From contig NMRA01000585.1 in NCBI GenBank assembly GCA_002633005.1, positions 198,802-262,801 on the forward strand: 64,000 nt of DNA, given 5' to 3'. The notes under the pieces are model-generated. The model had not been told where the DNA came from. It made no database searches and saw nothing but the letters and a program-made list of their open reading frames with translations. A program made the position numbers and the translations under genes. Below, piece after piece: positions 32,063 to 61,336 of this stretch (positions within the stretch are counted from its first letter, which is position 1; each line of letters begins with the position of its first letter). Origin of the DNA: Phoronis australis (Eukaryota; Animalia; Phoronida).

Positions 32063-35000
32063 TCAATCACACAAAAAATCTAACTGCCCTCTGTAACTGT
32101 GGCAGTTGATATATTTAGGCCTTGCTCCTGCTTGATTTCCATTAGGCTTCAGAGGCTATAAAAACACAAAAAATTCAACAAAAGACAAACAGTACACGTC
32201 TCTCATTTCATTGACTGTTGAATTTGTCAGGTGCCATATCACAAAATGAACATGCTACTAAACACCTGCACCCAGCCAGTTGCATGAAACAGTTCAAAAT
32301 GGTTCCCTAAATCTTGTGTCCTTCTTTACTCAGAGATGTAATATTTTTATCACTTTATCTTTATAATAAGCCCCTCTTTAACAAATGACATTTTTAGTAA
32401 CATAATAAAAAACGAGCCCTTAGTACAATGAAAATAAATAGGGACATGTATGAAAAATCCTCACGATTTGACTCAAAGCCAAAAACTGTCTTAGAAATGA
32501 AGCTAAAATAGCATTACAAAATACAATCAGTGTTTTCACCAGTCCAAAAAAAACCACCAGATTTAGGGAACTTAGTTGGGTCCCTATTTGGGACTGTTTC
32601 ATGCAACCAGGTACCCTGGATAGAGAGTGAAAACAACAACTCCACTTTTTCTTCAGCGATGTGCACTATAACTTTCATCAAGCCAGTATTTTCTTTCAAG
32701 ATAATACGGACTTCCTTGATGTGTGGAGTCAAAACTTAACACAAACTAGTTCGGAACTCACTATTTACCGTATTCGCCCTAATAAGCGCCCACGCCACTA
32801 TAAGTGTCCGCATGCGTTTTCAGACTTTGCTAAAATAAGCGCCCAGCCTATGAACGTGTATATACTCAAAATGCCTAACCTACAGGTCTAAAATTCTACA
32901 GTAACGTCTCCAATTGATCAATGAGATTTGACAGTCCTGAAAAAAATCATTGTGTGTGGAATTTGCAGACCACGACCATCACCGCTATGTCGGTATTTAG
33001 CCGTGACTATACACTTCAAACTTCCACCGTGCCACTTCAAAAAGAACGCAAGTTTTGCTGACCTTGCGAGGGACGTGTCCTAGTACGGTCTGGCCTTTCA
33101 GAACAGATGCAGCGTACTTGTCAAAGGGATTGTATTGTATTGTATGTTTCCCGTACAGATCTTCTCCATCAACAAGGATCCAAATTTGTTTGTTGTACAC
33201 GTGAACCGCGAATCGAAGACTAATAAAAACATGACCGGTGTTAAAGCCATGTAGTCAGGAAGCGCACGCAACATACAAGTGCCTATTCATGAAACGGGTG
33301 ACTAGCATAATATCGCAACAAAATAAATATTGGCATTAATTTCCAACAGTTTCTAACACCGTAGAAAATAAATCCGAAACTAAAAGAGGCGATCCAGGTC
33401 CTCTAAAGGATACAATTGTTTGTCAAAAAGTAGAATAAATATACGTAAATAAAACAACAAAATGGATTACTGAAATTTTCGGATATATTAACATCCATCG
33501 TCAACAGAAACAGAAATAAAGTTCAATCAAACACTATATGACAATTGACATCTGATATATCAGATGAGATCAACAAGTGCTAAATAAATCGCGTCCTGCT
33601 TTTATTACTGCTTGTGTTACGGTTACAATGCACACCTAGATCGGTACATCGGATTTACTCTGGCAAATGAACTCTGACGAAACGCACGCGCTCGCTCACT
33701 CACACATGCAGACAAACTTCAAAAACAAACATCACGTGACAAAAACATTGTGTGTTCGCCCAGAGATATTTCTCCTGTTACGGGATGCAATCTAGCACAA
33801 ATTTGGACTTAATACGCAGTTAATCCCAACTCCAGTGGCGGATTTAGAGGGGGGGGCATGCCCCCTAAAATTCTCCCAGATTCCCTCTGCCAGTTCGGGG
33901 GTGAGAATGTCTAAAGGGCAAAATCCTGGCTAAGGCTAATACTCTGCACTGGTCCCCCCAAAACACAAAATCCTGGATCCGCCCCAGGACTTCACAGGCA
34001 CTCAAAAAATCTTAGGGACGCTATTTTGAAAACTTCAGGAGGACTTCAAGTAATTGTTGAGTCGAAACTAAATTTTAATTCAAGAATTCAAGTTGACCTA
34101 TCGGCGATCGTGAGGCAGCGACGCATGAGTCGGCGAATTTTCGCCCTGGGATTTCAGCACGATTTTTTAAAAAATGATCGTAATTTAACACCTAAGTTCG
34201 ATAGCAATGTACCGCAATTTTGTAGAAAGTCTGTCATAGGTTACAGATGCGTCACAGAGCGTAAATTTGATGAATCCTAGCTTACGATTTCACCCGTTTC
34301 GGAGAACTGGTTTCAACCACTGTGTGCTATATTATGCACCCCCCTCCCGGAAGCGAATTTGTCTATGCGCCCTGGGCGCTTATTAGCGTGAATACGGTAG
34401 GCCTAGAAGCATAGTTGATTCTGGTATTTAGTTGTTCTGAAAACCAATTCAGTGATGGAATATTTTCTTAGTTTATTTTTCAAGACAAAAATTCACAAAC
34501 TACCAGCTAGTCCATTTCTTCACTAATTCATTAAAACAATGCTTAAAACATTTTTTTTCCATTTAAGACAATCACTAACAACTTTCATAAGTATTTTTTC
34601 AAAATGCAATGCTCGCATAGTATGAAGTTATATTTTTTCATTCCATTGCTACCCATAATGTTTTTTAAACTATTACAATGGTCTTCATCGTCTGAAAGTT
34701 TCACAGAAAACTTCCCCTTAATTTTCAGTTATTCTATGGAAATGTATGGCATTGCAAAACATACATTCAAACATTGACATCGATGACAGAAAAAACCAGT
34801 AGGCGGTTAGTAGTTTAATTTCTTGAAAGAATTACAAATGCCCATTTTATGTATTACATAACAAGCACATCATTACCGTATCAACTTACCTCATTCAAAA
34901 TAAGGCCCCAGGGATTTGGCAGATTTGGTTTCCTTAAGGATTCTGGCACAAAACGAAGTCCCAGCAAAAACTCTCGATCGTAAGTTCTAAGTTGCCCTAA

Positions 35001-38000
35001 AAGGTTATGTTTACACACAGTGAACAACTGAATCCTCGTCGCATGACATCATCAACTAGAACATGATCCCCACCCTTGACACGCATTTATGAATAGGCTT
35101 CACTTGCTGCATGGCTAGGGCAGATCATGCAGTGGCCAAAATTCCTTTGATATCCCAAGAGACAAAAGCAACTCGCCTAGCCTAATCTTGGTGTAGCAAA
35201 GTCTGTAAATGCTATTGCCATGTCATGAACATTGGAAGATTGAAAATAAAATCCATCCACTTTGCTTGGACCCCATTAACACAGTACAGGGGGCATGTAT
35301 CACCAGGATTGGGCTTTATGTTGAAATTTCCCAAGGGACAAAACGGCCTGTTGGGTGAGACTTGAAATTAAAATCAAGTGGCCAGGTTATGTCAAATATC
35401 AGAGGACACTCAATGGCTTTTTTGAACCACAGTTGAATTAACCTGCCCCCATTTCACTGAAAATTGACGCCTGCTGGGTTGGCTGGATATTTTGAGTGGC
35501 ATGCATATGCTTGACTTTTGAGTCTGTTCTGAGTAAAATATTGCCAGTTGTTGACCCATTGACCTACTATTCGCTAAGTCGTGGCTTTTCTCAAACCTTT
35601 ACCAGGTGCGCATGCAAAGAAGAGGAGAATTAGAAAGTATCCGAGTCAAAAAATACCTGATAGGTCTGAGGGTAAGGGTTGCTGCTGTTGTCGCGGAAGT
35701 AGAGGTGGGGGAAGTCTAACCGGTACATCATTGAAATGCCGTCTTGGCTGCTGCAAGTAAGAATGAGGTATTTTCAGAGCTGGTGATTTAACAGGAAGGA
35801 AATTCCACATGGGACGTTATCGACCACTTTGTGTATTTAGTCAAACAAATACTAAATTATAGATTTTAAATCCATGTAGAAAGTCTGCATAATTGGATCT
35901 GCCATTAGTTGGGTCACATGGCTAAGTCTTATTAGGAAAGCTAAGCAAAAAAGAAAGGAGTATTCATATTGAAATTGGGGTATCAATAACATAACTATTT
36001 ATTTGATACAAAACTTCAAGGTTAAATTTCAAAAACAAACCGTTACAGTTTTCTAAATTATCATTTACGTAATTCTCCTCAGTATGCAACTATTGCATTA
36101 GGTTATAAAGGCACATTCCTTTTCAATAGCCAATCAAGCAAAAGTGAGTTATACATTTGTGAAAACAATTCCTAACAGCTAAATAAAACATCAAGCTTCA
36201 TATGAATCTGATCAGCTGTTTCTAAAACAAGATGGCTCTGAAGTAAATTATACTTATCTAAGGGTCGTTCATAACTTTAACCAAAAAATAATTTGCATAT
36301 GAGGAAGAATTTTCCAATAACACCCCTGCTGGCCACTTCAATTTCCTAGAAATGTCTAATCAGCTTACTTAATTCCCTTAAAATTACGTAAGTGAAATTG
36401 TATTTTTAAAAAACACAACATATTATGCAGGCATCAAAGTTTAAAAAATTGACAATGAATTCCTAATTTTATTTCATGTTGCATCCTGTTTTTAATAACT
36501 GTAACCAGGTTGACAAGGCATGATGTATTTTTAATTGAGCTTCTTGCTGCATAGCAGGATAATAATGGAGAAGTGAGTGATTTTGGTTTAACAAGTACTC
36601 ATCATTTTGCTCAAGTGTATTATCCTTCAGTCAACTATCTCTAAGATCAAGAAATGCCACTAAATGACCAACCTAGTATTGATTACTGGTAGCTTAAACT
36701 GGCCCTTTTCACAAAGGGATTGAAATTAAACATAGTTATTGCTAGAGACCCTATTCAGCTGAAGAGCACCACAATCTTCATATTAAAGAAATGCCACTGC
36801 TTAGAAAGCTGGTTTTGTGACATTTCTGTCAAAAACACCAAATTTGCCAAGACACCTGGTTGCTATGGTAGCAAAAACCTGGTGATAGATTTACCTAAGA
36901 GAACGACATTGCTCTTTTTCCGATGTACAACAACACCACAACAATACAATAAGCCCATCAAAATTAAGCACTCTAAACTTTGATTGAAAGCTCATAAAGT
37001 TTGGATCTGTATAGATGAAGCTAAGCAGTTGTCTTAAACAATTTTCCCTTTAAAACAATAACTTTGAGCAGACCAAACAGTAACAAAATGCTACACAAAG
37101 AGCAAGATAGATGACTGGATTCAACTTACCTGATAGCGAGAGGTTGCTAACGGGGTGTGGTGGAATTCCAATGCAGAATCTGCTGACCTGGCAGTGGCTC
37201 TGGTAATTCCACTGGAAGATGTTGCATCATCCAATGCCTTCCCGGTCTTTGGATTTACAATAAGCAAAGGCTTACGCTCTCTTCTTGGAAGCACAGGACC
37301 GGAATATGGAGTCATTTCGTGGATACCTACAAAAAATTTAATGAGACAGTTATTCAATTGCTTATGAAATAAATGACTGTAACAGTGGTTGAACAAGAAA
37401 CTTTGTGTTATTTCAAGCATTACAATGTAACAAAATCCGACTTGAATGCATGTTCTTCTTAAATCAACATTAGTTTCTGTATGGTTTCAAGTGCGATTTG
37501 TTTACTAGTATATAATACCGTTTTTTTCTTCCTTTCTTCTATAATTAAATCATCAAAAACTCAATCCATCAAAGAAATGAAAATGATCTCTACTTAAAGG
37601 GCAAAATAATTGTTATACTCAATTCAATTTTAAAATTTTCTATACTGTACCTGGAAATAGAGATCCCATGGGAGCCTCATAGACATCATTTTGATGCTGT
37701 GGGTCCAGGTGCTGATGCACAGTGTCAACTGTATCTAACTGTGACCTTTTCTACAATCAATGCAACTGAACTTCAGTTGTATTTCATCACTAAGAAAATT
37801 GTTTAATCAGTGACAAAACTTCCCTAAACCTCAATGAAACAGAAGTTTGGGGCAAATATAAGACCTAGTCATGCTTTTCTGAAAGACACACCCCTGAATA
37901 CTAATTGAAACATTGAAAAGACGCGATGAGGTGTTGATCTGAAGTGAATTAACTGCAACTGCCGGTTTGGAAAGAGAATTTCAAACTACATAAACTCAAC

Positions 38001-39149
38001 AGTGACAATTTACTCGATTTCTAAAAAATAGATAATTATAAACAAGTTCAAATGTCATGTTGCTATATTGATGTCTAATTTTTCATCCAATGTCATAAGC
38101 CAATTACAAAATACAATTACCTTCTCACCAAACTGAACGTCTTGAGGAGATGAACCAATAGCCTCATCATTAGAATCATGCTTCAACGGATCAGCAAAGG
38201 TTTCATCAGCAGAGCTTGACCCAGTATTCCCTGATTGACTTACTGAATCCTCAGGGTACTTAAGATCCAATGGTTTGTGGGCAGTAGTCAACTTCAATCC
38301 AACTGACACATCTTCAGTTTGAACATCAAAAGCTGGTTCAATGGTACTGCACACTAGCATAGGGAGGTTAACTGCTGTCAAACGATTATGGAAATACCTT
38401 CCTTTACTAAGCCTCTCAACAACAGTTGCAGATTCACGTGTGTTTTGCACATATTGTACAGTTTTGCTCATTGTTTCCTGCTTTCCTTCCATATTGGTTA
38501 TGTTTGCAGTCATTTGGTCACGTAAGACATGCATCTTTGCTTTTAAGTCTTCTAGTAAGTCTTCCTCCATCTTCTTCAGCATGTCTCGAACTTTCTCAAA
38601 GTGTCCAGAAATTACTAAACTAATACGCTGTTCCTCCTCATTACATAAATTCAGTTGTTTGTTTAGTATTTCAACGCAGTTTGCGGTGAATTCACACTTT
38701 GGCTTGATACTCTCCAAAAGACCACCTACTTTTTTATTATTTTGTTCATCAGCAACATGAAAGTCAAGCATTTCATGCTCAGGGTGACTATCTTTGCAAT
38801 ACACACAGAGTGGTATTTCACACTGATCACAGAACATTGTGATTTCTTGTTTAGTGTGAATGGGACACATTAATGAAGAATCTTCGGAAGGAAGGAATGT
38901 TACCATGCTTTTGAAAGGAAAATTGTCTTTTAGACCACTGACTCCATCTGCTGGTACGATGGTATCTTTCTTACATATAGGACATTCAATGATTCCACGC
39001 TTCCTTGTAGTAGCAATGTGATCATTAATGCAACTTGTACAAAATGAATGTTGGCATGGTAGAACCTTGGGATCAGTAAAAACCGACAGACACAACGGAC
39101 AAGTGAGCTCTTCTCGAATTCCTAATAAAGCTGCAGTGTTGCTGGCCAT
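32063..39149 (-). CDS. TRIM (RING-B-box-coiled coil) protein fused to eIF4G N-terminal PABP- and eIF4E-binding motifs, ~539 aa
   Basis: Exons 39149-38121, 37750-37651, 37326-37130, 35750-35657, 34996-34890, 32155-32063. All GT-AG, phases 0/1/0/1/0 chain, 1620 nt with no internal stop. Confidence 0.85.
32270..32612. mobile_element. PIF/Harbinger-like MITE
   Basis: gttgcatgaaacagt ... actgtttcatgcaac inverted termini; second copy at 51178-55625. Confidence 0.75.
32768..34397. mobile_element. Tc/pogo-like non-autonomous DNA transposon carrying a HIRAN-like fragment
   Basis: TA|ccgtattcgccctaataagcgccca ... tgggcgcttattagcgtgaatacgg|TA; ORF 32997-33200 (NPFDKYAASV..GHVPRK); nested MITE 33833-33987. 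Confidence 0.8.
34890..34996 (-). CDS. Exon with eIF4E-binding motif (RTYDREFLLGLRFVPESLRKPNLPNPWGLILNE)
   Basis: ccttttag acceptor and GAG|gtaagt donor; the YxxxxL-phi motif is identical to eIF4G YDREFLL; too short for the ORF track. Confidence 0.92.
37130..37326 (-). CDS. Exon with eIF4G-type PABP-binding motif (RRERKPLLIVNPKTGK)
   Basis: tttttgtag acceptor and CAG|gtaagt donor; resembles human eIF4G1 KRERKTIRIRDPNQGGK. Confidence 0.8.
38121..39149 (-). CDS. TRIM exon: C3HC4 RING, B-box 2, coiled coil
   Basis: CPLC..PCQHSFCTSC..CPIC RING; CPIH..FCDQC..CVYC..H..H B-box; heptad region; gccATGG start; AAG|gtaatt donor. Confidence 0.95.
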
Positions 39150-39523: not shown

Positions 39524-39647
39524 CTTCACTTTCTGTTTAGTGCTTGTGATAATGGCCGCCGGGATTTCCCATCAGTGGGGAATTTCCACAAATAAACCCC
39601 GAAGCGCCTTCTATTGGTAGACACCAATGAGCTATAATCTCATTGGT
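39524..39647 (-). promoter_or_regulatory. Promoter of the TRIM-eIF4G chimera: two NF-kB sites, ISRE/PRDI-like element, CCAAT boxes
   Basis: GGGATTTCCC (39561-39570); GGGAATTTCC (39578-39587); minus-strand GAAAGTGAAG (39524-39533); CCAAT/ATTGG at 39613, 39624 and 39642. Confidence 0.65.
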
Positions 39648-39652
39648 CGATT

Positions 39653-43184: not shown

Positions 43185-43330
43185 AAGAATTATCCGACCC
43201 AGAAATAAACGAGTTCTCCATTGCATTTGTCGTGACATGCGAGATGGACTGATAGGCCTGAAGTCCAGCACGATTCCTTTAGGTGGACGAGTGTACCGAC
43301 GTGTCCAGGTGAAAGCTGACGTGAAGGTCA
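43185..43330 (+). pseudogene. hAT transposase (DUF4371-like) fragment
   Basis: DPEINE / VLHCICRDMRD / VDECTDVSR motif pieces across frameshifts. Confidence 0.55.
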
Positions 43331-44234: not shown

Positions 44235-47200
44235 TTAAATAGTAGACAATTCACTTGTGTCTAGCAAACATTTCAATTTCCTCCAGGTGGCAATCTTTCT
44301 AGTCTGTAGAATAATGTCAACAAATTGATAATGGCATTTACAGTTTATTTTAATAAACTCTTAAAACAATTCCAAGTGCACAAAATACAATGATTTATTC
44401 ACTCATCAATAGAAATATTCTTTCCACAAAAAGGTAAACAACTGTCTAAGGCCCACCCTGCCCTTGCTTCCCACATCAACTAAGTTGACAATTTTGGGAG
44501 TACTGCTAAATTCTAGAAATGGCAACTGCTTATAAAGCTACTTCAAATACACGTGAAAGAAACTATGTTCTTATTCAGACCATACAAAACTGATCTCAAT
44601 TTGTTTGTTACTGGAACGAACAGTCTGAATTTCTGGACTCCGAAAAGGAAAAGAACTAACATTTCGTTATCACTTCAGCCCATAAAATGACTCGCTGAGT
44701 CAAGTCAACCCACTGAACCTGGTCTCTAGTAATAATGAACTGCCAGAACTTCCCTAGTAATAAAATCCACTCCAACCTGAGTAAGGAACAAGTCGAGACC
44801 AGTTTTACTAAAGTAAGTGGTCATAATCAAAAGTAATTTTTGTAAGCTAAGGCAGTCTATAGTAACTTTAACCCATATCTGTCTCTTGTAGTCGTAAAGA
44901 CTGAATTATTATGGTCTTCAGTTGTTGTGACCCTTCCACACTATGCTGTAAACATCCCCTGCAAACGAGATACGGATAGATTAGGAGAAATCTTGAATTT
45001 CTCTAATGTAACCTGACGAGCCCAACTGAGGGAGGGGGGGGGGGGTGTGGGGGGGTGACTAAGCGAGTTTTTGAAGTTTTATAACTGGTCAACTGTAAAT
45101 GAAAAAAATGCCTTGAAATGTTCATTGGAAAGAAGTACTCAACATGGCATATCAGCTAATTATACAGCACCACTAACTCACAATACAAGTTGAGCCTGAA
45201 TACACAGAATCCATCCGAAAATGGAAATGCACTGCCGTCACCTGAATAAAACCTACTTTTGAATGTCATGAAAATCCATCAAGAAAGTCCAAAGATACAG
45301 AGGCAAACCTAAAAACATAAAACTGCCACTAGGGGACACAGAGGTAGCTGGATTGGTCTAAACTTATCCTCATCTGCTTAGCAGTGTACCCCAGACAGCA
45401 ATATGCGACCACATGTACATAAAAATAATGCCCACAAACTACAACCTCATTCATATGAAGTGCAAACTCATTGATATAGCACAAATCGTTTGATGAGTTG
45501 ATTTGAAACAATTTTACTACTAATCAAGGCACCAACAATAACTACAATTCATGCTACTATTAATCAGTACATTCTTTCATAGAACAAAGAGCTACAGTGC
45601 CCAATGGACAAGTTATCGATTCAAATAGGAACACATTTGGTAAATCTTGGTTGCTAACAATAGAACACAACTCAGTCTGTCAATGTCATTGCAATCGTGA
45701 AAACTTATTGCCACAAAATGAGGGGAACAACCTCTGAAACATACAGCACAAAGACATGGGCCACTCGCACCCAGACGGTGAGAGGGCTGAAAGCTGCAAA
45801 AGTATCAATCGTGCGGTGTACAAAGATAACAACTGTGAACAGAAGGTGAAATAACACACATCAGTGTACACATGCATGCACATTGTAAATGTTTTAAAAG
45901 TACAAACCTTCTCTTTCTTTGCTCTTTCCAAACTTTGCTGAGCCAAAATGGACTTTTCCTGAGCTTCTTTGGCAGCCTCTTGATGAATCTGAGCAATTGT
46001 TTTGGGGTTGTTGTCTGCCCGCCTTGGTACCCAATTATTCTGCAGAAACATGTCATTGAAATTCATAAAGAACTCAAGCCAGCTGCAATTTTTTTTTCTC
46101 TTTTCTGAAGTATCAATCATAATTAGACACAGACACCATGAAAGCATCCTCCTGCAAAAAGCTAAGGTGTCAAGAATAGAACATGTTAGTCAGAAACAAC
46201 GTTGTCAAATAAACAACATCTAAGACAAACCTGCCGCAACTCTATGATGTCTTGTAACAAGAATCTTATCCTAACACCCGTTTTTCGCTGCGTCACAATT
46301 TTTTCCATCTGCTGGAAATACTGCTCAACCCTAGGCTGCAAGCAAAAAAAAACAATTAATATTACTTGTAGAAGCTACAAACCCACTTTTGTCACCAAAG
46401 TAACTTTTCATTTACATCACACATCATTAAGAAATTAGTCTCAAAACATTTCTTATTCGAAACAGGTGTGATTCACGGGGTTAGAAAGAAAAAACTAGCA
46501 CATTGTTAATGTTTGAGAGACAAAGCCCTGCAAGTGGCATTTTATTTGCTGAGTCTGGTCAACAACAAACTGTCAGTTCTTTGCAAGACCACAAATCCCT
46601 TCTCCTCTGAATGAAGAACGAGATGAAAGCGGTAAAAGTGATCTGAACCAAAACTAAGTTAATTTGACAAGATTTAATGCTGCTTTTACATTCATTTTTT
46701 TAACAACTAAAACACAAAACAATAATACCCCACAGTTGAAAGATACCAGTTGTGCAGAGAAGTGCTTATAAATAAAGAATGGGCCAGAGTTCAACAAAGT
46801 AACAGTTGAATCTCAAAATGCTGGCAAACATACTTTTGAAAATTTATCAAAACCTGAGAAATGTTGGACTTGTGGACTGAAGAGCATTTCCTAAGTACCA
46901 GATGCATGAACATTAAGATCGGGCCAAAACTCAGGAACATACAATAGAATCTTAAACTGCTGATGGTATGCATAACAGCACTTGAAAATCCAACGTTTTA
47001 CATCTAATCAAAATCCTTTTTGAATCAGTTGCACACAGAAGAGAATTTCCTACATGAAAGTGTAAAATGGGACAAAATTCCGGAAAAATACAGGTGAATC
47101 ACAAAATGCTGACAATTCGCATTTTTGAAATTTGGTTGAAATCCCCGACACATGTAGGAACTGTGTACAGAAGAGTATTATTCTTCACACAGAAGCACAG

Positions 47201-50200
47201 ACAAATGGACAGAATGGCGCCTACCATTACCATATCTCAGTTGCTGTTGGCAGGGAATAACAGGATTTATAACAATTCCTCAAAGCAGATGTGACACAGG
47301 GAACAAGTTTCGAAAATGTCAGCTGACCTGCGTCAGTTGTGTTCTCTCACTTTTCTGTTCCGACAGCTGTGCTAAATCACCAGGGGTCAGTTTCAAGAAA
47401 AATTATTTGGTCTTACACTACACAAAAATGTTTCCTGGAAAATAACTAAAACTCACTTTTAGTAAAACAACAAAATCTGAGAATATACCCACCATGTTGG
47501 TCACTGAGAAAATTTATGCAAATTATTTCCAGGCTATGATGTTTTAATAATTACATAACCGAACCTCCAATGGGGCTATTTGGAAAATCTACAATAACTA
47601 GAGGGCGTGCGTGTACTAGTGGTGATAGATTAACAGCCTCGATTTCGCGAGCCCTTTAAATACATGTTGAAATGGCTTGCAGCCGTGCCAACTGAATCTG
47701 AGATTGCGTAAAAAGGGTGCTTCTAAGAGAGGAAGTAAGCACGACCTCATACAAAGGTAAGGTTTGTGATTATTTTTATGATTATTCAATGATTATTCTA
47801 CCGATGTCTGTTAACTGAGGCACTCGCCGATGTCGACTTCGCGGCAGTCAGTCGCCAGCCAGAGTCTGGTTAATCTTTGTATGTTGTGATATGTGATACG
47901 ATACTTGACCTAGCAATCGGGATCTTTTCGTACATCAAAGCATTATTATTGTTTGGAATGATTTCTAAAAGTTTATCAGTGGTTATCTCTTCCTGGTGAC
48001 AGTTACATCAATCAATGCTGAATGTTTATGCTGTCAACTCGATACAGGTTAATGAAGATTACAATCCAATCCGAATGTTAAAGGGTACGTGAGTGATAAA
48101 TATCCATTGCATTAGACTATTTGTTTACTTCCTATCATTATGTCTTCTGCAAATCTATTACACGTTGAAATGGAAATCTATCACGTCAGTTTTCACGTAA
48201 CCTTTGGTTTTTAGGTTTGAAGGCTTGTACCGTGCAGAGGAGATATGCATCGCTTCTGCACCGTCCCTGAATGGACAAAAATTGGTTTTTAGCATTTGAC
48301 TGCAGCTAACCAACAAGATCTTCCCATCCAGTGCAGATCTGTTGTCAAAGCCTACTTTCAATATTGGAGACAACGAACAAAGCCTTTGAAAAGGAACAGC
48401 TATTTTTAAAGTCATTTTGTTAAATTACTTATTCAGGTCCCGAGGGGGGATTGGCATGGGGGGTTGTAATATTTGGTACAACTGAATGTGTGGAAATAAC
48501 AGGTAATACATGTTTGGGGAAAAGAGCATGGTGAGGTAATTCTTAACCTTCACGAAGTCCCTTCAAGTTGATTTCATGAAACTGTTTTGCTACTTGTATC
48601 AATTGTAAAACCACGAAAATATATTACATTTTCCGAATTCACAGTGACTGAATAGTCTTAACTCATGCCTTGAAATGTTGCAAGTCGTTATAAATTCAAA
48701 TGACTGCCATTTTTGTGAAAATTGCATTTTTGATGGTGCCTTACGATTTGTAATTACTCTTAAACAACAGAAAGATTATCCATCATTTTTAAATGACCCA
48801 AGTCTTCATATCTTCTATTAGAAGAAAAACGGTTCCCTCAACCTTAGGCTAGAAGTATGCTTGACAGACCCATGAACCTGTAATCTGAGTTTAAAATTGC
48901 TGAAAGTATCAAAATTAAAAAGGCTTGAAAATGGGTAACAAAGGTTTGAAGTTGTCTCAAAAAACTTGTATATTTTACAGACAAGTGATGCGTTTAAAGA
49001 ATTGTTATGGCTAGGGATAAAAAATAAAGACACAGTTTTATGCAATACTCATTATATACACCCTTGGTTTCTGAAAATAGTAATTATTTACTTTTATGTG
49101 AAACTGTAGACCAATCACCATATATTTTTGAAAAACAGGGATAACATTTTTGATCCAATCTGGAGTACTTAATTATTCATATTTCAATATTTGTTCCAGG
49201 TGCAGTGACATTTTAAGACCACTTCAAGCTGTATCATAGACAAGCTTTGTTACTCCGTTCTCTTCCCACAGCACTTCCACACACCAGCAGTGCTGCATGG
49301 CACAATGTGCAAGTCAGTGGCCCTGGAGAAATGTGAATCGCAGTACTAAGTTACCATAAGACAATGTGCCAGTGGAGTGTCTGTGTATCCAGACGAACTA
49401 TATCTGACTGCTACACAAATAAGCCTTGTTGGTGAGGATGCCCTTTCATAGGCAATGAGTCATGTGTGGACAATAGCTTATTTCCTTTCCTGGAAGAAAC
49501 ATGAGGGACTGAAGCTAAAGAAGACCTAGTCACACTCTGGTCTAGTTCAGAGTCTGATTTTGGGCTCAAAACGATTCAAGTGATATGCTGCTGTGTTTAC
49601 CTTCAAGGGTCTAATTGTGGATGTTATTGAGGCTGAATGAGGTTACATGAAAGAAAGCCACGTGTTGAAACTGGACCTTTTTTACAAGCGCTTCTATAGG
49701 CCATTGAAACTAGAACCCAGTGAAATGAAAGCCAAAAGCTGAGTGACATTAAATTTTCCTTTCAGAAGAAAGGCTTTATACTATTGGTAAAAACTTTTCA
49801 ATTTGGTACAGATTATGGGGAAATGACATTCAGTGACTGCATCGATTGTCTTATTGTATGTTTTCAATTGTAGCTAGCTGGATAAGAATCTGCTATGCAC
49901 AAGATTCGAGAATAAACAATTATCAGTGTATTTAAAAACAAATGGCAAACTGAAAAAGCACAGAAAGAAACAACATTGCGAGGGAGTCCATAATCAGGCA
50001 TATCAGGTGCTGAATTTCTGAATTACGTTCAATTCTCTCAGGTTATTGCTGAAGGATTGCTTTTCACTTTGTCCAACGGTGAAATAGATGGTCAGGCGGT
50101 TGGTTTCAGTTGTTTTTTCTTGCCTGTAACAGAATAGAAATATTAGCAAATTGTAAAAGAAAAGACAAGACAAAACTACTTTTGTAAGGCAGAACATACT

Positions 50201-53200
50201 TGACATTTCATCTTCATGTTTATGTGTAGAAACTAATAACCTTTGTACCCAAGTCTTATTTAATATCTGAATTAAAATATGTGAAACAGGCTAAAAGTGA
50301 TTTAACAATGTGTATTTTTCATGACACTTAAAATGTGCTTCTGATCTCAACAAGTAAAATTCATTCTAGGTGTCAATTTTTTTCCAATGCAATGTTACGA
50401 CATTTACTGAATTAAGGCTTATTCATGTTAATTCGATAACTGAGCTGGTGGTCCTGGGGGTGGGGTCCACGATAAAATAAGGAAACTCACTCATCTAGAG
50501 AATTTTATTGGAAACAGCATAGTTTTGAAGAGAAACTGCTGTGAAAAAGTCACTCTTGACTTCTGTGCATCACGTGCCATACACCTCTTATTTTGGGAGC
50601 ACTCCCACCCAGGACAATATGAATATGTGCTGCTAGCCTACCCGGCATCGGGTGAGTTTCCAAAAAGAAACACTCAGTTTCACTCAATAAAACTGTTATT
50701 CAGTGGGGTAACTGGTGGGGATAACATCACCGAACGATGTTGATAGAAACTGATTGCTAAAAACTTACCAAGTAATGTTGTGTACTCTTCGAATGGAACT
50801 GTGCATAGTCATAGAGCACACACGGGGCTTCAGCATCCACACACTTTTTGTCAGTTAGTTGACCCTGTTGACCGCAATTGTCCACGAATATAGTAACCTT
50901 AGGTCTTTTGAGAATGTGTGGCCACCTGTCGAAGACTTGCACCAGGGAAATTAGCAGTAATAAGGCTTAGCGCGACGACGTATTTTGACAAAAATTCCAT
51001 CTTTTACCAGTTGTTTACATGCAGATAGCCACGCATGCGCAATTCAATCACCACTAGTACAGCAGCGACACCGCGAGGAGAATTCTCCGAATAGCCCCAT
51101 TGGAAACTGTGAAGTGAGAGCATAAGACTAAATTTCTGTCTTGTCTTAAATTCACATTTTATGAAACAGGCCCCAGTGGCCGGTTGCATGAAACAGTCCT
51201 AAACAGGGACTCAACTAAGGTCCCTAAGCCTTTTTGTGTATTTGTGTCTTTATGGACTAACAGATGCAATACTTTTTCTATCATTTTGTCTTTATTATGA
51301 GCTTATGAGCTCCTCTTTGATAATGGCATTTTTTAATATAACTAAAAACTGAGCCCAGAGTTCATTGAAAATATATGGGGACTCAGTCCTTAAATTGGGG
51401 GAGTTGCATGAAAAGATCCCTAATTACTTTCGAAAATATTGACAATTCAACACAAAGAACACTCTCGATTTGCATCAAAATCAGAAGTTGACTTAGTAAT
51501 GAAACTGAAACAATACAAGAAAGTGCAATCGATGTTTTCACAAGTTCAAAAACACGCAGCAGATTTAGGGAACTTACCGTAAACGTTCGGGTTAACACCC
51601 TGGGCGGTTAAATTGGCAAACCCAAAAAATCGGGGGTGGGCGGTTAACCAGACATGGGCGCTTAAACGTGAAATTTCAAGAAATCCAGGGTGGGCGGTTA
51701 ACCGAACATATTACGACAGGCAACCGCCCTGGGCGGTTAATCTTACCTCGTACTCGGAACGCGTAGAACTTTTCAAAGAGCGTTATTGTCACGTCGCCAC
51801 ATGACGGGAAAAATGTCATAACAGTGGATGATCCCAACAAAGATTCTCTTGCCCTCAGATTAGTTATTCACTATTAAATTTACAGAATTGCTGAGTAATA
51901 GCCCCGTGGCGTCCTGCGGTCTTGTTACTTTGCCCTCAAGAGAGCAGACGACCAGTGACCACGCAGCCTCTACTTGGATTGCAACTATTTCAAGATGTGA
52001 CCTTGTTAAAGTGCGCGCGTGCAAGATTCACGTGTTGCAGAGGTCACAGCAGACATCAAATTTATGGTTACATTCTCGTACTGAGCTTCCAAGTTCATAG
52101 ACCCTATTCACGCCGACAGGAGGCGCGTTCCAAAACGAGGCTCGCTACGATAGCTCTGTTAGCTCATCGGCAAAGTTCTGTTTCAGTCCGTGTTGTTCCG
52201 CGAACGACTAGAAAAAATACGGACGTGCAACTGTCTGCTTTACAATCTCTAAAGACGTTGAGATTTGGAAGCGTTGGGTCGTTGCCATACGCCGCGACGA
52301 AGCAAAATATGTCCGTGTAAAATTTATAAATGTTTTCGAAAAGTTAGATCATATTTTGTCGCATCTCGGTCAGTTGTCAAGCATCATAGTAACGACCAGA
52401 GAATGCGCCAGCCAGGCTGTGTTTTCATGACTACAGATTTAGGGGTTTAGGGGGGGGGGGGCATGGCCCCTCTANGGGCATGGCCCCTCTAAAATTGTAT
52501 CAGATCCCATTTTAGAGTTCGGGTGCGAATTGCTGATTAGCACACGTGCGCAACCAGGGGGTCTTGGGGGGGGTGAATAAACAACGCATAGGCGCTGAAT
52601 GAACCCCGTTTACCGTTTTTTCTCCAAAAAGGACAGGGTCCCCAATCCCTCAAATTTGGGACCCAATATCGGCCCTATTCCCCTCTCAAAAGTATTGAAA
52701 TATCACGCGAAATTCCCCCCACGAGGCATGCCCCTAGTGAAAAATCTCTCTGAGTTCACTTCACCTGTAACCACACAGGTGACACTTTTTAATAGCACAA
52801 AAGGCTACTTTAAATTGAGACAGAGCCTATGAGCGCTTGCTACAGGGCGGGGGTGCTATTGATGGTGATCGGGAGGTAGATTGTTCCTGCCCTCACTCGG
52901 CGAAAAAATCGCCTCTCAGTAGGCACCTTTCCCCTCGGATGAACGAGGCCCTGCAGAAACATGATAACTATGATTGCATTGTCCAGTTAACTGAAATTGA
53001 GTTCTAAAACGAGGTTATGTTTTGGACAAACGAATTAGGTGTTTTAATTTTAAAATTTAACTTGGTCCAGATTGATATTTGAAATCTAACACATGAGATA
53101 GACGTAAGAATTATTACAACCGAGAAAGCAGAATTGATGGTCAAATAATTTTTGCTTTCAATTACGAGCCTGGTTTTTTATTTTAATAAAAAACTATTTA

Positions 53201-56200
53201 ATAACATCAATTATTCTTTCAGATCAATGACAAATCAACTGTTAGTCCCAGTGAGTGCATAGCCATCAGGCTATGCTTGATGTTAATATTCTTGATCAAC
53301 AAATTAAACCAGATGTGGCTAATCCACCACTGTCAACTCGTCAACAATACAAGCAGATGACCTGGTCCGCGTAGAAAGTATTTTGATCAACAATTTACAA
53401 GAAAAAACGTAACCCTGCATTCAGCATAATAACTAATCCATAACACTACGATCGCCTCAATTTGGTCATGTTTACGTTTCATGTTTCAAACCTAGTTTTC
53501 CGAAAAAAATTAAATCCTTTAGTCAGACAACTCTTTGGCGCCTTAACTTGTTCTCTAATGTAATTTTCTACGTCTCTGTGGTTCATTGTCGACACATCAT
53601 TAAAATTTAATATCCAGGTTGGACTCGAAAGACCTGCTATTTAACTCACGCAATGTCTACTTTCGCTTTGTTTATCGCAGTGAGCCTCGCTTTGGATTTT
53701 AATGTCCGCCGCGTGAATAGGGTCTATAGTCTGAGAGCAGTTTTAAAATTAGTTGTAAGAAAAGTTTGAAAAACTTAATTCAGATGTTTTTTGTGTTTAG
53801 GATGTTTATAGTCGAAACGCCGTGATTCAATGGCATTTTCAGCGTATAGTTCTGCGGCTAGCTATTTTATCTCGACCGCCCGGCATTGCTCACTTGCCGT
53901 TGCGCCAAACATGCTCGGCAAAGAACTAGGCCTAAGACAAGAATCGGGGTTAAGCGGCTGTGAGCCACTCGTCAATCAAGAATAAAATTTCGAGCCAAGA
54001 CATAAATATGTGATAAAACGCCACAAAACAGCGATGTTTCAATTCATTCTTAAACGATCACCTTACCAAACTTCGTGGTGGAAAAACATTTATTTTTCAT
54101 GCAAGATGTCCAGATTATGCTATTATATCACTTGCAATATCGCACTGCGGCATTGTTCGGTCCCGCTGTTAGCGTGCAATGTCTCAGTCGACTGATAATC
54201 GTGACTTGGAAATGCCGTCAAGTAATATAACGGCCTCTTTCAATATATGTGCCTACGTGTGAGTCACCTGTCAATCACAAGTTGGTGTCAAGGTAACATG
54301 CACTGCAAACTGTGGGAACTTGCGCACGTGCACCAAAATGACTACAAAGTCACACATCAAAAGAGAATAGCCCTAAGTAACAAAAAACGGGCGTGACTAT
54401 GTACTTTTAAGCTGTTGTTACGAAAGACCCAGTTCTTTACGATATTCCTCCGTTGCCAATGTTATCCAAAACTGCGATGTCAAGTCTATTCCGATATTTC
54501 CCGGCTCGATGCTCCCTAAGCCCATGCCCATAGGTAGCTGCGTGCATCTCCTACCCACTATCGCCAATTTTCAGTCAGTCTACGTCGTGGATATTTCAGA
54601 CTCGAATGGTAAGAATTTTTGTTCAGGCTGAAACTGGCCAATGTATAAACAAATTTATTCTGGATGGCGAAAAAGGGGATGTGGAAACGATAACTGAATT
54701 CACACTTATGCTTATACGTGGGGGCTGACGCAAGAAATAGTAAAGAACAGCCAGCGACATTAGTTAAATCTGCTAATGCCAGTTTGACTGAGATGCAATA
54801 AGCGAAAAACAAAATTTGACTAGCAGTTTTTTATTACCTCAAGATCATATACAAACATACATTATTGCCAACCTTTGAATTCAGAAATCGATAGGCAGCA
54901 ACAAAATCGGTAACCCATTAAGGCACTTGTACTGTCTCTTCGGTCGCCACACACCGCGAAAGTTACATTCATCAAAACATTGAGAATTTGACATCTTTCC
55001 GTGAGTTGTGAGATTTGCTCAAAGTACGAGAGCTTCCCACCTTAATAGAATTTGGAGGGTTGGCAAAACCATTGTCACATTTCTGTGACCTTATTTTTTC
55101 GAATATGTGATTTATCTAGTGCACTGCAAACGGAAACTCAGCGCGACAGACAATGTCACTGAAAACGGAGGTTTTGAAGCCGGCGACGTTCTTCAACTTT
55201 GCAAATATGGGAAGAAAATAAAGAGACAAAAACCTTCAAGTATTATATTTTGAAATGAGTCCATGACCCTAGACAATAACTCGTTACTTGTATTGTAATT
55301 CACATTGCTAAACCACCGTCTGGGAGGCCCGGCTCTTTGCGCTCACTGTGATAATCGATCTTTTTCTAAAAGTTGGGGAAGCGCGTTTCCTTAGCACTGG
55401 GCGCTAAATCTTCATTCCTGAAAGTCGGGCATGGGCGCTTAACCGAGAGGTGGGTGCTTAACTGGAAATCTTCAAAAATCGCAGGGGTGCGCTTAACTGA
55501 GCAGTGGGCGGTTAAATCGAAAATCCACCTAAAGTAGGGGGTGGGCGGTTAACTGAGCATGGGCGTTAACCTGAACGTTTACAGTAGCTGAGTCCCCATT
55601 TGGGACTGTTTCATACAACCAAGCACAGAACACTTCTCCAATTTCAATCCCAGCCCAGGCATATCGCAATTTGACCTTTGACTCCAAAAATGAGGCTTGA
55701 AACAGTTAAGGCCAAGAAAAAATAAGCATAATTGATTCTGCTCTGCACCTGACTCGTTTTGTAACCTGCGCCTAACTGTTCAAAGAAAAATTCCCATCCT
55801 CACTGTTTTTAGTGAAGTTCCTTTTCTATGTTTTCAAAAAGCTACAAAAAAGTATCTAAGAAATTTTTTTTAAAACGAATTAGCTTGGCAACTCATCAAC
55901 AATCAACTATTTCATGACCTTAATTTGATTTGGTTTTGAATCGCAATGGTCACATTGTGTGACATGCTCACATCACACTTTTGGTTAGAATTCTTAATTC
56001 CGTTGTAATAAACATGGATCACATAGTTCCAAATATTTTTCGCAGCAATATATAAGTATGCCAAATTGACCAAAATAATTTTAAGTCACTAAAAAACCAA
56101 TACATCTGACTTCAACTGACCTTTGCTTTTTCATGATCTATATCTTTCCCTATAGTCATTAATAGCCTGCACAGACACTCCAAGCTGTGTTCATCCATGG

Positions 56201-59200
56201 ACTTCAAAAGTTTGTGCAAACAGTCATGCATGATTGCTTCTGTCAACATCTTTAACTTGAAGAGCTCTCCAATGAATCTGTGGGCAGAATTATGATGGAT
56301 TTAGGTCATGCTTCATCTAGAGGGTTATATACTCAACTTAACTTTTCACAGCTATTTTTTCAAAAGAAAATTTGCCAATGCCAAATAAATTTTGAAGACG
56401 TGAATAACATACTCTAGGTTGTAATCACTGAAATGCTCTAAAATTATTTGTCGATTTTCATGACATCATAGTGTTGAGGCATGGTATTCAAGATTTCAGG
56501 TGAAAAATACCATCTTTTTAATGAAGGGTATTGGTTGTAATTCACAGCTGCAAACCCTAGTACAACGCACGTCTCTCGTTTGACATTCCAAGCCCGGTCA
56601 TAATAAAATCAAAATTGTTTTGAATTTGAGTCAAATAAACCAAGACGACGAACAGTTTTAAGAGGCTGTTATATCAATCACAAATCAATGGGTACGCAAT
56701 TCATTAAAAAACTCATACATTTGAAAAAATTGGCCGCCTATACTAATGTAGGGTCCCTGGTCTTCCCTCACTTCTGGGCAGAGGCCCTCTATATTAATAT
56801 AGGAGCCCAGGTTTTTGGCAGCCTCTCATAATACTATAGAGGGTTCCACTCTTCCATCACCTTAGGACATGACCTCACAGAAAGCACTGCCGCCAGGCGA
56901 CAGAATGTTTATGACTGTGGCACTACCAGTGGCAAGTTGTTTTTTGAAACCACAGTTGTATCTCCTAAGTCCCTTACAGGATATTTGTACTTTATGATAA
57001 GAATATTCATTACATCCATGTTATGGTCACACGGAAAGTTCAAGGTCTTTGCTGCTTACAGTAGGACGGTAGATTTACCTAATGTGTGCCAGCGATCTCC
57101 GCTTGATTGTGTACATTTTTTCTTCCCAGGCTGCTTCAAGACTTTCCGTTGCAACCTCCTAGGGTGAAAAAGAACAATGTCATGAGACTTTCATCCTCTG
57201 CTAAGTGGTCTAAGGCAAAATCAGATCAAAATAAAGTTAATAAAACATTTGGACGACCAAAACTGAAAACTTGAGTTCAAGGGGAAGGCTGACATTTTTT
57301 TGGTTTTGTTTCGACTCAAAATTCAAATCTTGCACACATTTTAGCACAATTTTTCTGGCCCTTATACAAGACTATTACTTAGGGACACTATCTGTTTTGA
57401 CGCTGAAAAAAATTTCTTTTTGTGGGATCACTGTTGAATGGGATAATGTCATTTGATATGAAAGGCTTGAAGTTAAAGCAAGCTTTTGATGCTTCCCTTA
57501 GTATGAAAATGGCAGCTAACAAGGGTCACATTCGGAAAAAGTTTCAAGACTTCAGCTACTCAATCATTAATCAAACAATCAAATTATTTTTTTGTTTTCA
57601 GCTGAAGGTTCTTTAATGACAATTCTTTGATAGCTTGATGGGTGGTGGCTCGTTCCGAAGTCCCTCGTGTCAGGGCAACATCGCGTGTAGAAAGGAAAGT
57701 TGTAGATTTTGAAATTGATAACTGCAGTCAGTGGTTTGCTTCAGACTATCATCAGCCAACAACAGCTTCAAAGCAGTTTTGACAATGTGGACCAGACAGG
57801 TTATACAAAATGGTGTTCGGATTAGTGCAGTGAACCTCTTGATTCTCAGCAATGGTTTATACAACTTGTCACCGTTACTTGAGAGACAGTGATAATGGCT
57901 GTGCTAACATACTGCAACATAAACTAGAAGAGGAGTATACAATGCAAAACATTCTTACGTGCATGTGAGCAGATCCACCCTGCACTAACCTTTGGTTCCA
58001 TCTCATCTACATCCTTTTCAAACTCTCGCTGACACCTACTCAGTAGCAGCTTGCGGAAACCAATAATTTCATTTGGTTTGTCTTTTGACGGCACTTTTAC
58101 CTTGAAGCACAATATGGAAAGCCTACTCAACAATCACACTTTATTGTGAAGAAACTAACAGAACAAGGAAAGCAGGTAGCCTGATGTAAACAGCCTAGGC
58201 AATAGTCACTTACATAGGGTCCCGTATTTGAGAACCAGTATGATGCTTGTTATGCACAAGCCAATATTCTCTTTAGAAAATTTCACGTGCTCTTTTGCAG
58301 TTAAAACGAAACTTTTCAACTCCTTTTACTTCCCCATTTACACTGCCCCCTTGTGGTGGAACTTTAAAGTCATCAACCTTCAACAAGCTTAATACGTCTT
58401 ATCACAATACATTTAAGCATTTCTCGAGTTACTCCAAATTTGGGGAACTACAAGAATCTATACTCTACATAATTTTCAGTGTTGTAAGGCTACCCGGCGT
58501 AACCTTAATCCCAGTTTTATGACTCGCTTGTGTCAATCTTTAATCCTATAATCTTTGCCATCAACCAGTCTACCTTATATTTTCACTCACTCATTCATCT
58601 GTTGTGGATGCATTCACTTTTTACTGTTTATATGTAGTTCTGTTATTATAATCTTTTTTTGGTGTAATTTTATCTTTCTTTCATTAGATTATTCTGTATT
58701 GTTTTGTATGTGGACAACAGTAAAGTTCGCAGTATAAATATTCATTCATTCATTCACTCAGTGAAGAAAACGGGTTCTCAAAATGCGCAATCACTGTAAG
58801 TGACCGTTACCGAGCTTAATTATTTCTGTAAATATAGTGCAGATGTTGTGATATGAAATCTGACAATTGCTACAAATATGGTCGACTTTTACTGATACAT
58901 TAAATTCTTAGATCTGTTTCAGTAGTTTCTGTTGACTACTCCCAGTCTTTTCTGTGCAACAAATACAAAATGTATTGATGAAGCACAAGACAATTTTCAG
59001 AAAAAAAAAAACAAAAAAAGGGCGCAGGTGGCCTGATGTCATTTGTGGAGCATCAGACGTACGCAGGCCTCATGGTTGGGCCCATTGCACCAAACACCTG
59101 AGCTAAAAACACGAAAGCCCCGTTGTGGTTCTTAGTGAAGGAAGTGTTCAAGTCTGCCTGTCCCCTTTAAGAAACAGACAGACTTTTCCACTTATCGTCA

Positions 59201-61336
59201 TGCATTATATAGACAAAAACAGGCACCAGTATGTTATATTCATATTTGCACCATTTGTCTTGAATTTCCTTACCTCAAGATAGTACTAACTTCTAGGCTT
59301 GGAAACAACTGATAGATTGTTAAGGCCATGCCTGGTGATAAAATGACACACTGGCTCAAGCTAGCTCAAAGAACCTAGTCTCAATTAACTGTCAATTCAT
59401 TTCAAGACCAAACACCACTTCTCTTCTGAATATGAGGAACAATTCGAGACCAATAGAAGGGTAAATAGTCTGAATCAAGTTTTTTTGACTGAAAAGGCAG
59501 TGCACATTTATAGACCTTGCAAGGTCTTCACAGGTATTTAAATACACCAAATCATACACTACTCACATGCTCTTACTTTTGGTTATCTTACGCATTCAAC
59601 AGTTAATAATTTGTGGAGACATAATAAGCACAAAGTCAACCTTCACTCACCTGCATAAGATATTTGCATAAGTTTGCATAAGCTACACTGTAAAGCGGTT
59701 CTTTAATGGCCTTTTCAAACACAAGATCTACAGTGCCTAAGAGTCTCTCTTCTGTGTCGATGGTCTGGTCAAGAAGTTGGGTGACAAGAGATGAGAATTT
59801 CGTTGGCGTGAGTTTGTTTAGAATACTTCGCACTTTCCTGAACAAATCCTGTAAAATGCAGGACATGGCTTTTAAATTTTAAACAACTGCACAACAATCC
59901 GATATGCCAGTACATATAGCACTATGGCATCAAACTGTAAACAAACAAAAAATTATTTAGCACTATTATCAGCCCGTGATAGGTTCAAAGAACGAGGACC
60001 TTGTGGTTGCACACTTACAATTTACAGCTTTTCACTCAGAATATAATCTACATTCATCTGTGTGTTTAATCATTACAACCTCCTGATCAGTTAAACCTCA
60101 GACAACAGTGGTGTCCATCACAAGGATAAAAATCAGTTTATAAATATATATAAATCTCAAACTGGCATAGAAATGTATATCACAAACATTTCTAAGCCTG
60201 GTCAGCACATTGTTGAACATTCTCGTGGTCTCAATTTGTACAGCCCCATGAATCATGTCACTTACCTACCACGGTTCAAAGAGTTACTAAAACCCAATGG
60301 AACTACACTTTCATCAAGGGGTGCCACAGAGATATATGGCACGCCACTGTTGACCACAGAACACAAACCTAATGCATAGGTGTCTAATTTTTTATTGTAT
60401 TTCTTCAGGCAAACTAAGATCCTAACCAAACTACTTTTCACAAGCGAACATCAATTTCAGAAGTTAAACAGTTTTGAAAAATCACCAAGTAGTTGTAGTC
60501 CACACTCCACAATATTTCGATTAATACCTGGTAATCTTTGCCCGTTTATAAGTGCTGTCCTTCAAGTCATCACTAATGTCAAGAGCGTCAATGATAAACA
60601 GTCTTTTGATGACAGCTGTTCCTACTGTGAAATATGGGACAAGTTTCAAATGGCTGAAAGGGAGAACACCTCACAAAATATAATGAAATACCTCAGTTTT
60701 AATGACCTCTGAGTCTTCTTGCACATTCATCATGGCACTTCTAATTCTCCAGGGGTTCTCAGCATGGTGAAGTTGCACATTGTCCATGGGCAGAGTGATC
60801 GCCTTTGGGCCCCAGTCCCGCTCTTCAGATCGCCTGTCACCTCCCATACTTTTCTGGCAGCGATGGCTTTCAAATCACAGAACAGAGAAACGACAGTTCA
60901 CTGATAGTGGACTCAAAGAGACCGTACACTACAAATACTCGATAAATAGTCTATTCTGACACTACCCAAAACATCAACTCCAACCCCAAAATTCAGGGTG
61001 GGTTTGATGACCATGCCTAGGTGACACTGGACGACAGGATCAATACAAGACTTCTGTCTGGCACTCTCAGGCTCAGATTGTAGGCTAATTGAGGGCTGAT
61101 TACAGGTGCCTTTGGCTAGTGCCGTGGCTGTGCCTGTGTCAAGAGTCAGACAACACGACTAGTATTGTTCTCAGTAAATTGAACTCAACAGTTTCACACT
61201 GCGCCCGTGGACTTCACACTCTACCAGGGCCATGGGGGCTTACAGGCCTTAGCATTACGTAAATTCTATTTTAGAGTCGTTTTCAAGACGAATAAACACA
61301 AGTTTGTGCTTCGGTAATGTCTTACACTTCCGCCAT
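44235..61336 (-). CDS. Truncated eIF4G paralogue consisting of the MIF4G (HEAT-1) core only, ~345 aa
   Basis: Exons 61336-61326, 60866-60692, 59848-59651, 58100-57990, 57158-57079, 56277-56121, 46335-46231, 46039-45908, 44303-44235. All GT-AG and in frame (1038 nt). Motifs [62 protein letters not shown]. The first and last exons are the least certain. Confidence 0.85.
45908..46335 (-). CDS. eIF4G MIF4G C-terminal exons (46335-46231 and 46039-45908)
   Basis: [10 protein letters not shown]…[14 protein letters not shown] and [22 protein letters not shown]. Confidence 0.93.
51577..55584. mobile_element. Tc/pogo-like DNA transposon derivative with gggcggttaa subterminal repeats
   Basis: TA|ccgtaaacgttcgggttaacaccc ... 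gggcgttaacctgaacgtttacag|TA. Confidence 0.8.
52097..53727. mobile_element. Nested TIR element (ISL2EU/PIF-like termini)
   Basis: atagaccctattcacgc ... gcgtgaatagggtctat. Confidence 0.7.
56121..56277 (-). CDS. eIF4G MIF4G exon ([19 protein letters not shown]...[12 protein letters not shown])
   Basis: Near-identity to the metazoan eIF4G motif; canonical splice sites; missed by the ORF track. Confidence 0.95.
59651..59848 (-). CDS. eIF4G MIF4G exon ([15 protein letters not shown]...[10 protein letters not shown])
   Basis: ttttacag acceptor and CAG|gtgagt donor; clear MIF4G start of metazoan eIF4G. Confidence 0.95.

Follow-up and report, generated by a model that had tools for sequence, protein, structure and literature searches.

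What can a TRIM exon be doing at the head of exons that resemble pieces of the translation initiation factor eIF4G? The question is raised by a stretch of 64,000 nucleotides from the phoronid Phoronis australis (assembly GCA_002633005.1, contig NMRA01000585.1, positions 198,802 to 262,801 of the forward strand; hereafter the window). It is intron-rich animal DNA, on the minus strand of which, between 39149 and 32063, an exon for a RING finger, a B-box and a coiled coil precedes five small exons, one with a motif like the PABP site of eIF4G and one with an eIF4E-binding site. The original prediction took these for a single gene, encoding a TRIM E3 ligase fused to both binding motifs. Our analysis suggests a lineage-specific TRIM protein that would use the eIF4E-docking exon of eIF4G as its substrate module and act as a 4E-BP-like repressor or as a ligase, a reading for which we set the probability at about 0.5.

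The eIF4G side of the locus is carried by exon 5 (34890..34996, minus strand, as are all exons below), which encodes a canonical YDREFLL (Y at 34982), a KP linker and a non-canonical LPNPWGLILNE; both motif peptides quoted in the original prediction are in their places, at 37282 and 34988. The pattern YxxxxL-phi by itself is too common to be informative (PMC3763552; this and the other papers are cited from excerpts). When a hidden Markov model (HMM) of 22 eIF4G motif variants was run against the 2909 peptides of a six-frame translation of the window, exon 5 scored E 9e-8, the next best being 0.22. At E<=10 the exon matches nothing among the PDB sequences but three chains of human eIF4G1 (best 5T46_B, E 8.7e-4), that is, eIF4G and not 4E-BP, and with the uninterrupted eIF4G frame of one genomic locus (L004) it shares 52% identity over 31 residues, the non-canonical part included. 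The exon border agrees as well. Exon 5 ends in a phase-0 donor after LNE, 93 nt past the Y codon, and in both genomic eIF4G loci compared (L001 and L002) the donor stands after LDK or LEK, 96 nt past this codon, the difference being one linker codon absent in exon 5. The claim of an eIF4G-type canonical plus non-canonical eIF4E site therefore stands; judged by these comparisons, exon 5 is derived from eIF4G as a whole homologous exon with the eIF4G intron position kept. No Pfam family was matched by exons 3 or 5 at E<=0.1, PF05456 of 4E-BP included. In the predicted protein YDREFLL is located at residue 479 of 539, without an initiation scaffold, and the integrity of the motif makes eIF4E binding by exon 5 likely.

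Exon 1 (coding part 38121..39149) is, for its part, a TRIM by every feature tested. It contains the whole tripartite motif, in residues 1-343, with a disordered acidic tail. The RING finger of the C3HC4 type (38973..39101; PF13445, E 2.5e-10, residues 17-57) has 8/8 zinc ligands (C17, C20, C32, H34, C37, C40, C56 and C59), the B-box (38766..38873; PF00643, E 1.3e-7, residues 93-128) has the ligands C95, H98, C107, C110, C115, C118, H122 and H125, and across an alignment of 58 rows the ligands of both are invariant or almost so. The TRIM_CC match is weak (E 0.019, below the cut-off). The AlphaFold2 model made with the 58-row alignment (mean predicted local distance difference test, pLDDT, 81.6; the single-sequence model was poor, pLDDT 46) shows, in this order, the RING, the B-box, a 110-residue helix (residues 130-240, pLDDT ~90), a return helix (243-259) and the disordered tail, the two helices making up the coiled coil (38373..38762). 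Its RING superposes on that of TRIM2 with a root-mean-square deviation of 1.3-1.6 A, its best PDB fold matches are TRIM28, TRIM2 and TRIM21, and in the ESM Atlas exon 1 falls in generic TRIM clusters. The TRIM identity originally assigned is thus borne out by both domains and by the fold. The intact RING by itself suggests E3 ligase activity, and, TRIM proteins being dimeric in general, a homodimer through the coiled coil is predicted by analogy.

The two parts are joined by a six-exon model which has AG/GT ends at 5/5 introns, matching phases (0, 1, 0, 1, 0) and a single open frame of 539 residues followed by a stop, in agreement with the in-frame splicing first proposed. Exon 1 offers two donors, 38121 (phase 0) and 38129 (phase 1). 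Exon 2 (37651..37750) is a linker without detectable homology, which may be skipped; exon 3 (37130..37326) carries, from 37282, the degenerate motif of the eIF4G PABP-site type, RRERKPLLIVNPKTGKAL; exon 4 (35657..35750) is a Pro/Gln-rich linker with an alternative acceptor at 35747; and the coding part of exon 6 (32063..32155) adds 30 residues and ends in TGA. The protein stops there without a MIF4G domain, as had been claimed: none was found downstream of the TRIM exon, no match lies below 45900, and the strong matches from 78 long references are all at 45900-59900. Between exon 6 and eIF4G there is no significant similarity; its kinship with the eIF4G exon that follows VVLDK was tried and rejected, 626-1609 of 2000 shuffles scoring as high.

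Scored with generic splice frequencies, the donors of the model reach the 96th-100th percentile among the minus-strand GT sites of the window; its acceptors stand at the 82nd, 92nd, 99th, 63rd and 99th percentiles. Exons 3 and 5 have open frames and donors with CAG or GAG before GTAAGT; by splice score, exon 2 comes 4th among the 16 candidates that would bridge the gap in frame, and exon 4 comes 1st among 43. GC content speaks for exons 2-4: they have 0.46, 0.49 and 0.53, no value in 30 intron windows exceeds 0.41, and the introns flanking exon 2 have 0.32 and 0.27. The second donor, 38129, joins exon 3 directly and in frame (503 residues), bypassing exon 2, and further in-frame routes also retain the eIF4E motif; the fusion is therefore independent of exon 2.

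Is the fused transcript made? Three stranded RNA runs labelled Phoronis australis were mapped to 30400-47000 (18-19% of each run), the strand being calibrated on the exons of a neighbouring MIF4G gene (9.94 vs 0.03). Sense depth over the TRIM exon is 7.8, 5.4 and 3.3 per run (bins 3.3-9.8), and 1.6-2.2 in the promoter-side bin 39264-39817. The exon 3 bin has a sense depth of 0.54, 0.55 and 0.71 and the next intron bin 0, 0 and 0.03; the bins of exons 4 and 5, confounded by repeats, were left out. Behind the stop codon a 3' untranslated region (UTR) extends from 32062 at least to 30400, the edge of the RNA-mapped stretch, with AATAAA at 31615, 31038, 30922 and 30411 and a depth, over 30400-32061, of 0.5-3.1 in sense and 0-0.04 in antisense. 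If intron 1 is retained, a read-through stop at 38055..38057, present as originally noted, would yield a rival short TRIM isoform with ATTAAA at 37807. The summed depth of the bin behind exon 1 is 2.0, to be compared with 11.0 expected for read-through to this signal and 4.0 for splicing to exon 2. RNA depth thus argues against read-through as the main isoform, the very ending that the original prediction had set against its own fusion. We are fairly confident that a spliced mRNA reaches exon 5 from the TRIM exon, the fused form probably being one of several isoforms.

Several observations weigh against the fusion. The acceptor of exon 5 stands at the 63rd percentile only. Random stretches score like exons 2 and 4 (medians -0.9 and 5.4 vs 0.8 and 6.6), and, because bridging exons of this quality arise by chance, the in-frame path by itself is weak evidence. 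None of the splice junctions of the model is among the 15 of 218 joints listed, in which repeats and poly-G dominate; exon 3 is covered by about 2, 2 and 2.6 read-equivalents per run; the ratio of 3' UTR to TRIM depth is 0.20, 0.21 and 0.74, being highest where the TRIM exon is lowest; and run X6 has almost no depth (0.04) where exon 1 ends and across exon 2. No orthologue of the fusion was found in the searches described below. Finally, the PABP motif is missed by HMMs (E 6.8; elsewhere none at E<=10) and has no PDB match.

As to this motif, the original prediction claimed too much in calling it a PABP site. A position-specific scoring matrix derived from reference motifs (5 plus 16) does put the exon 3 peptide first among 35,775 stop-free windows (28.6 vs 22.3), and it lies on one strand with the eIF4E motif, in the eIF4G order. 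What did not hold, besides the HMM and PDB comparisons, is the C-terminal half, where ALDDATS replaces ITEEIM / LTSEIL of the references and their hydrophobics are lost; a D is also changed to N. The ESM Atlas gave nothing usable for exon 3. Ile140 and Ile142 of the eIF4G PABP site pack on RRM2 of PABP (PMC3169606), and two hydrophobics of the exon 3 motif, L and I, would correspond to them. The motif is probably homologous to the PABP site of eIF4G and possibly weakened, and PABP binding by the predicted fusion is doubtful. Since the C-terminal half has lost the reference hydrophobics, the clamp on cap and poly(A) that had been envisaged appears to stand on weaker ground than eIF4E binding by itself. 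A distance of 88 residues separates the two motifs, compared with 182-535 in eIF4G (30 of the 78 long references, those showing all motifs), as if the motif exons had been retained and the spacer exons lost.

The searches for relatives covered top lists rather than whole families. The TRIM part is fast-evolving, its best relative among 57 aligned rows being 28% identical over 244 columns; it had no close relative in the best 150 of 10,820 matches, and another search returned 5 distant TRIMs and no orthologue. In a quick tree the TRIM exon falls in no supported clade, NHL clades included, and descent from TRIM-NHL proteins is accordingly unsupported; 17 of the 26 top TRIM relatives scanned carry NHL repeats and none of the 26 MIF4G, and a Pfam scan of exons 1, 3 and 5 revealed no NHL repeats. 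Of 154 TRIM proteins, none has a match at E<0.2 to an exon of the model or of the MIF4G gene and none carries the motifs, and exons 2, 4 and 6 (30-33 residues) match 0/154 TRIM relatives at E<0.3. From the eIF4G side, the RING family was found in none of the 120 listed MIF4G matches (of 3106) and a RING pattern in none of 10 eIF4G loci. A weak search with exon 5 gave 0/21 candidates, a metagenome scan with the TRIM exon 0/202 stretches, and a relative of the motif was present in 0/27 viral contigs. Nor was a TRIM-eIF4G fusion found among the titles and abstract openings covered in the literature; a case could be contained in tables of TRIM domains for invertebrate genomes. The architecture is one that we have not found described, and the earlier statement that no TRIM class uses eIF4G motifs agrees with the relatives and papers examined. 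Two further proteins deserve a record of their own. P0156 (1050 residues), eIF4G-like, has two MIF4G-type regions, an MA3 match and an eIF4E-type motif near the C-terminus, being a shuffled eIF4G in another organism; P0155 (halibut, 1507 residues) is labelled eIF4G3-like and holds PF02854, PF02020, PF05456 and PF02276 together, which makes it either an odd architecture or a merged gene model.

TRIM proteins are divided into classes C-I to C-XI, class V having no defined C-terminal domain, and no eIF4G-motif class is among those described in the excerpts at hand (PMC3503706, PMC2533329). With a RING, a B-box and a coiled coil in order, in one exon and with intact ligands, the predicted fusion is a TRIM/RBCC protein, which a Pfam scan would place in class V; it differs in its tail, made of eIF4G-derived linear motifs and not of SPRY, NHL, PHD-bromo, MATH, ARF, filamin or FN3 domains. 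With eIF4G1 and eIF4G3 it shares the exon with canonical and non-canonical eIF4E motifs, the 3' intron position and the order of the PABP-like motif; in contrast to them, it begins as a TRIM, its motif spacing is short, its PABP motif is degenerate and MIF4G, MA3 and W2 are absent, so that the predicted fusion is not an eIF4G. Like 4E-BP1-3, Thor, Cup and 4E-T, it combines YxxxxL-phi with a downstream non-canonical stretch and has no ribosome-recruiting scaffold (PMC8558276), but its motif is copied from eIF4G, whose non-canonical part binds weaker than that of 4E-BP2 (PMC8558276), and sits on a predicted dimeric E3 ligase.

A tripartite motif joined to a part captured from a housekeeping gene of the host is known from TRIM5-cyclophilin A (TRIMCyp) and fly CG5071, TRIM-cyclophilin fusions that originated independently in owl monkeys and fly (PMC2533329). 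The captured part of the Phoronis fusion differs in consisting of intron-containing, disordered motif exons. Because these exons retain their introns, they point to DNA duplication and not to retroposition, by which TRIMCyp arose. Brat with 4E-HP provides a case of a TRIM-family protein on a cap-binding protein and of repressed translation (PMC13733232), and the RING of PML inhibits eIF4E, according to titles cited in PMC8558276 and PMC3763552; unlike these, the fusion has no NHL and would make its contact through the eIF4G exon, not through NHL or RING. Mextli, too, has eIF4G-like parts in a non-standard eIF4E-binding protein, but it binds eIF3 and promotes translation (PMC13733232), for which the fusion has no scaffold; of the models considered here, only the permuted gene discussed below resembles Mextli.

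The gene directly upstream of the TRIM gene, on the same strand, is absent from the original prediction; it bears on the origin of the fusion and offers a rival splice partner. It is a truncated gene of the eIF4G1/3 type (44941..60866, minus strand) with 8 in-frame GT-AG exons, a complete MIF4G domain and a last exon that meets a stop five codons from its start, the 5' part of the gene lying beyond a long terminal repeat (LTR) element, outside the window. Its identity to vertebrate eIF4G is 55-58% over about 310-330 columns; it has SLAHIRF where the references have SLGNIKF or SIGNIKF, and ~12 residues of the MIF4G insert are deleted. The depth of the last exon (20.9, 15.6 and 4.4, in a bin that holds some repeat) tracks that of the internal exons (23.6, 20.6 and 5.8) in 3/3 runs, and poly(A) signals are at 44399 and 44354. 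Neither MA3 nor W2 was found in the window at E<=1 with the C-terminal parts of 5 references. The product may be a cap-independent or dominant-negative scaffold. Considering two adjacent truncated eIF4G derivatives, we propose a partial tandem duplication of eIF4G, with a TRIM exon captured. A single-exon TRIM with its own CCAAT promoter would supply the start of the second derivative: the tripartite motif is often contained in one exon (PMC2533329), and the likely promoter of the TRIM gene (39613..39646) has three CCAAT boxes, two forward and one reverse. In front of the TRIM start codon, two short upstream open reading frames (uORFs) begin at ~39248 and ~39240 on the minus strand (within 39150-39250) and an AG acceptor precedes the start codon by two bases; a 5' UTR intron or control by uORFs is possible.

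The window holds further elements. A broken LTR retrotransposon with reverse transcriptase, RNase H and integrase zinc-finger matches (61640-63896, minus strand) stands upstream of the earliest MIF4G-gene exon within the window, and a reverse-transcriptase fragment, probably of a long interspersed element (41072-42198, plus strand; PF00078, E 3.9e-15), between this gene and the TRIM promoter. A dispersed repeat family has copies, 69-79% identical, at 14461-15500, 18598-18914, 21960-22419 and 45207-45376. Two plus-strand exons rich in Met, Pro, Gln and Gly (2018-2150 and 6840-7067) end in NDPFGL and a stop and have no Pfam match; we take them to resemble the C-terminus of an endocytic adaptor. 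A 42-bp tandem array (6569-6860) lies ahead of the second of them, and two arrays of a 58-bp unit occupy 8366-8621 and 8880-9193.

How else could the locus be explained? The TRIM could be a stand-alone protein without a C-terminal domain, and the eIF4G exons relics of duplication present in minor, unselected transcripts. Tripartite-motif-only TRIMs are common (PMC2533329), the 3' exons reach 20-29% of the TRIM depth in 2/3 runs, and the silence of the listed joints, the missing orthologue, the decayed PABP motif and an exon 6 unlike eIF4G all fit. We nevertheless regard this as unlikely, if worth serious attention: past the donor of exon 1 the depth is much lower than read-through would lead one to expect, exons 3 and 5 keep their open frames and their GTAAGT donors after CAG or GAG, exon 5 keeps the canonical and non-canonical residues though the spacing around it shrank, and 1.6 kb of 3' UTR is transcribed in sense. 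An antiviral decoy in the style of TRIM5-cyclophilin, whose eIF4G segment would bait viral binders or cutters of eIF4G and whose TRIM part would ubiquitinate or signal, with little effect on host translation, seems to us quite improbable. What is preserved best is the surface for contact with host eIF4E, and no viral partner, induction or positive-selection signal was obtained; the empty scan of viral contigs bears on bait function neither way. Such a decoy would have its precedents in the TRIM-cyclophilins of owl monkeys and fly (PMC2533329), and eIF4G is a target of viral proteins, of rotavirus NSP3, which binds it in the region of the PABP site (PMC3169606), and of several viral proteases, which cut it (PMC12709193); the fast evolution of the TRIM part, with its 28% best identity, the modest expression and the drifted PABP motif would also suit it.

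Exons 2-6 might, alternatively, be joined to the MIF4G gene (donor 45908, phase 0) or start from a promoter of their own, forming a permuted, Mextli-like eIF4G with the TRIM as a nested gene. Joining 45908 to 37750 would preserve the frame as well as both motifs, P0156 is a precedent for MIF4G domains before a C-terminal 4E-type motif, and the 3' UTR depth does not follow TRIM depth. However, the 3' exons follow MIF4G depth even less, the MIF4G gene has a depth-tracking last exon and poly(A) signals of its own, and TRIM transcripts would still need an end, read-through being disfavoured; we consider the permuted gene very unlikely. That the two halves of an ordinary eIF4G gene were swapped around the TRIM in assembly is hardly credible. 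It would account for eIF4G N-terminal and MIF4G parts in the wrong order in a window with many repeats, but 35187-39120 is covered by a single DNA contig that differs in one letter, and 34265-35212 by a second that differs in none, at a single-copy depth of 45-46 (the two overlap by 26 letters only, and their run may be the source of the assembly); moreover, each part has its own stop, followed by a 3' UTR that is transcribed, MA3 and W2 are absent from the window, and the motifs are not spaced as in an ordinary eIF4G.

For the TRIM with an eIF4E-docking exon, which we prefer, the following mode of action can be envisaged. In eIF4G the N-terminal part binds PABP and eIF4E and the middle part eIF4A and eIF3 (PMC12709193), and 4E-BPs repress by competing for the eIF4E site with canonical and non-canonical motifs (PMC8558276). 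A protein spliced from the TRIM exon to the eIF4G-derived exons would dimerise and dock on eIF4E by eIF4G's own motif; having no MIF4G, it would recruit neither eIF4A and eIF3 nor the ribosome, so that eIF4E would be held unproductively and cap-dependent initiation blocked in the manner of a 4E-BP. The dimer would offer two motifs at once, and this could make up for the weakness of eIF4G's non-canonical site; through the intact RING, ubiquitin transfer would take place next to eIF4E, with eIF4E or its neighbours the likely substrates. The predicted fusion would thus likely damp translation. Only tentatively do we suggest a TRIM class with the eIF4G docking exon as receptor, a degrader for eIF4E and perhaps for PABP or viral dockers, with the complementary MIF4G half adjacent. 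The two separate genes would then parallel the two fragments cut from eIF4G by viral proteases, one product being a ligase-armed cap blocker and the other possibly a cap-independent scaffold.

For their C-termini TRIM proteins draw on a small set of folded domains, and the regulators of eIF4E mostly sequester it. If our reading is true, the fusion, which is seen in one species so far, would link ubiquitination and the cap complex directly via the initiation factor's own interface, and it would illustrate how a duplicated eIF4G can give rise to a 4E-BP-like repressor, the origin of which is still recorded in the position of an intron.

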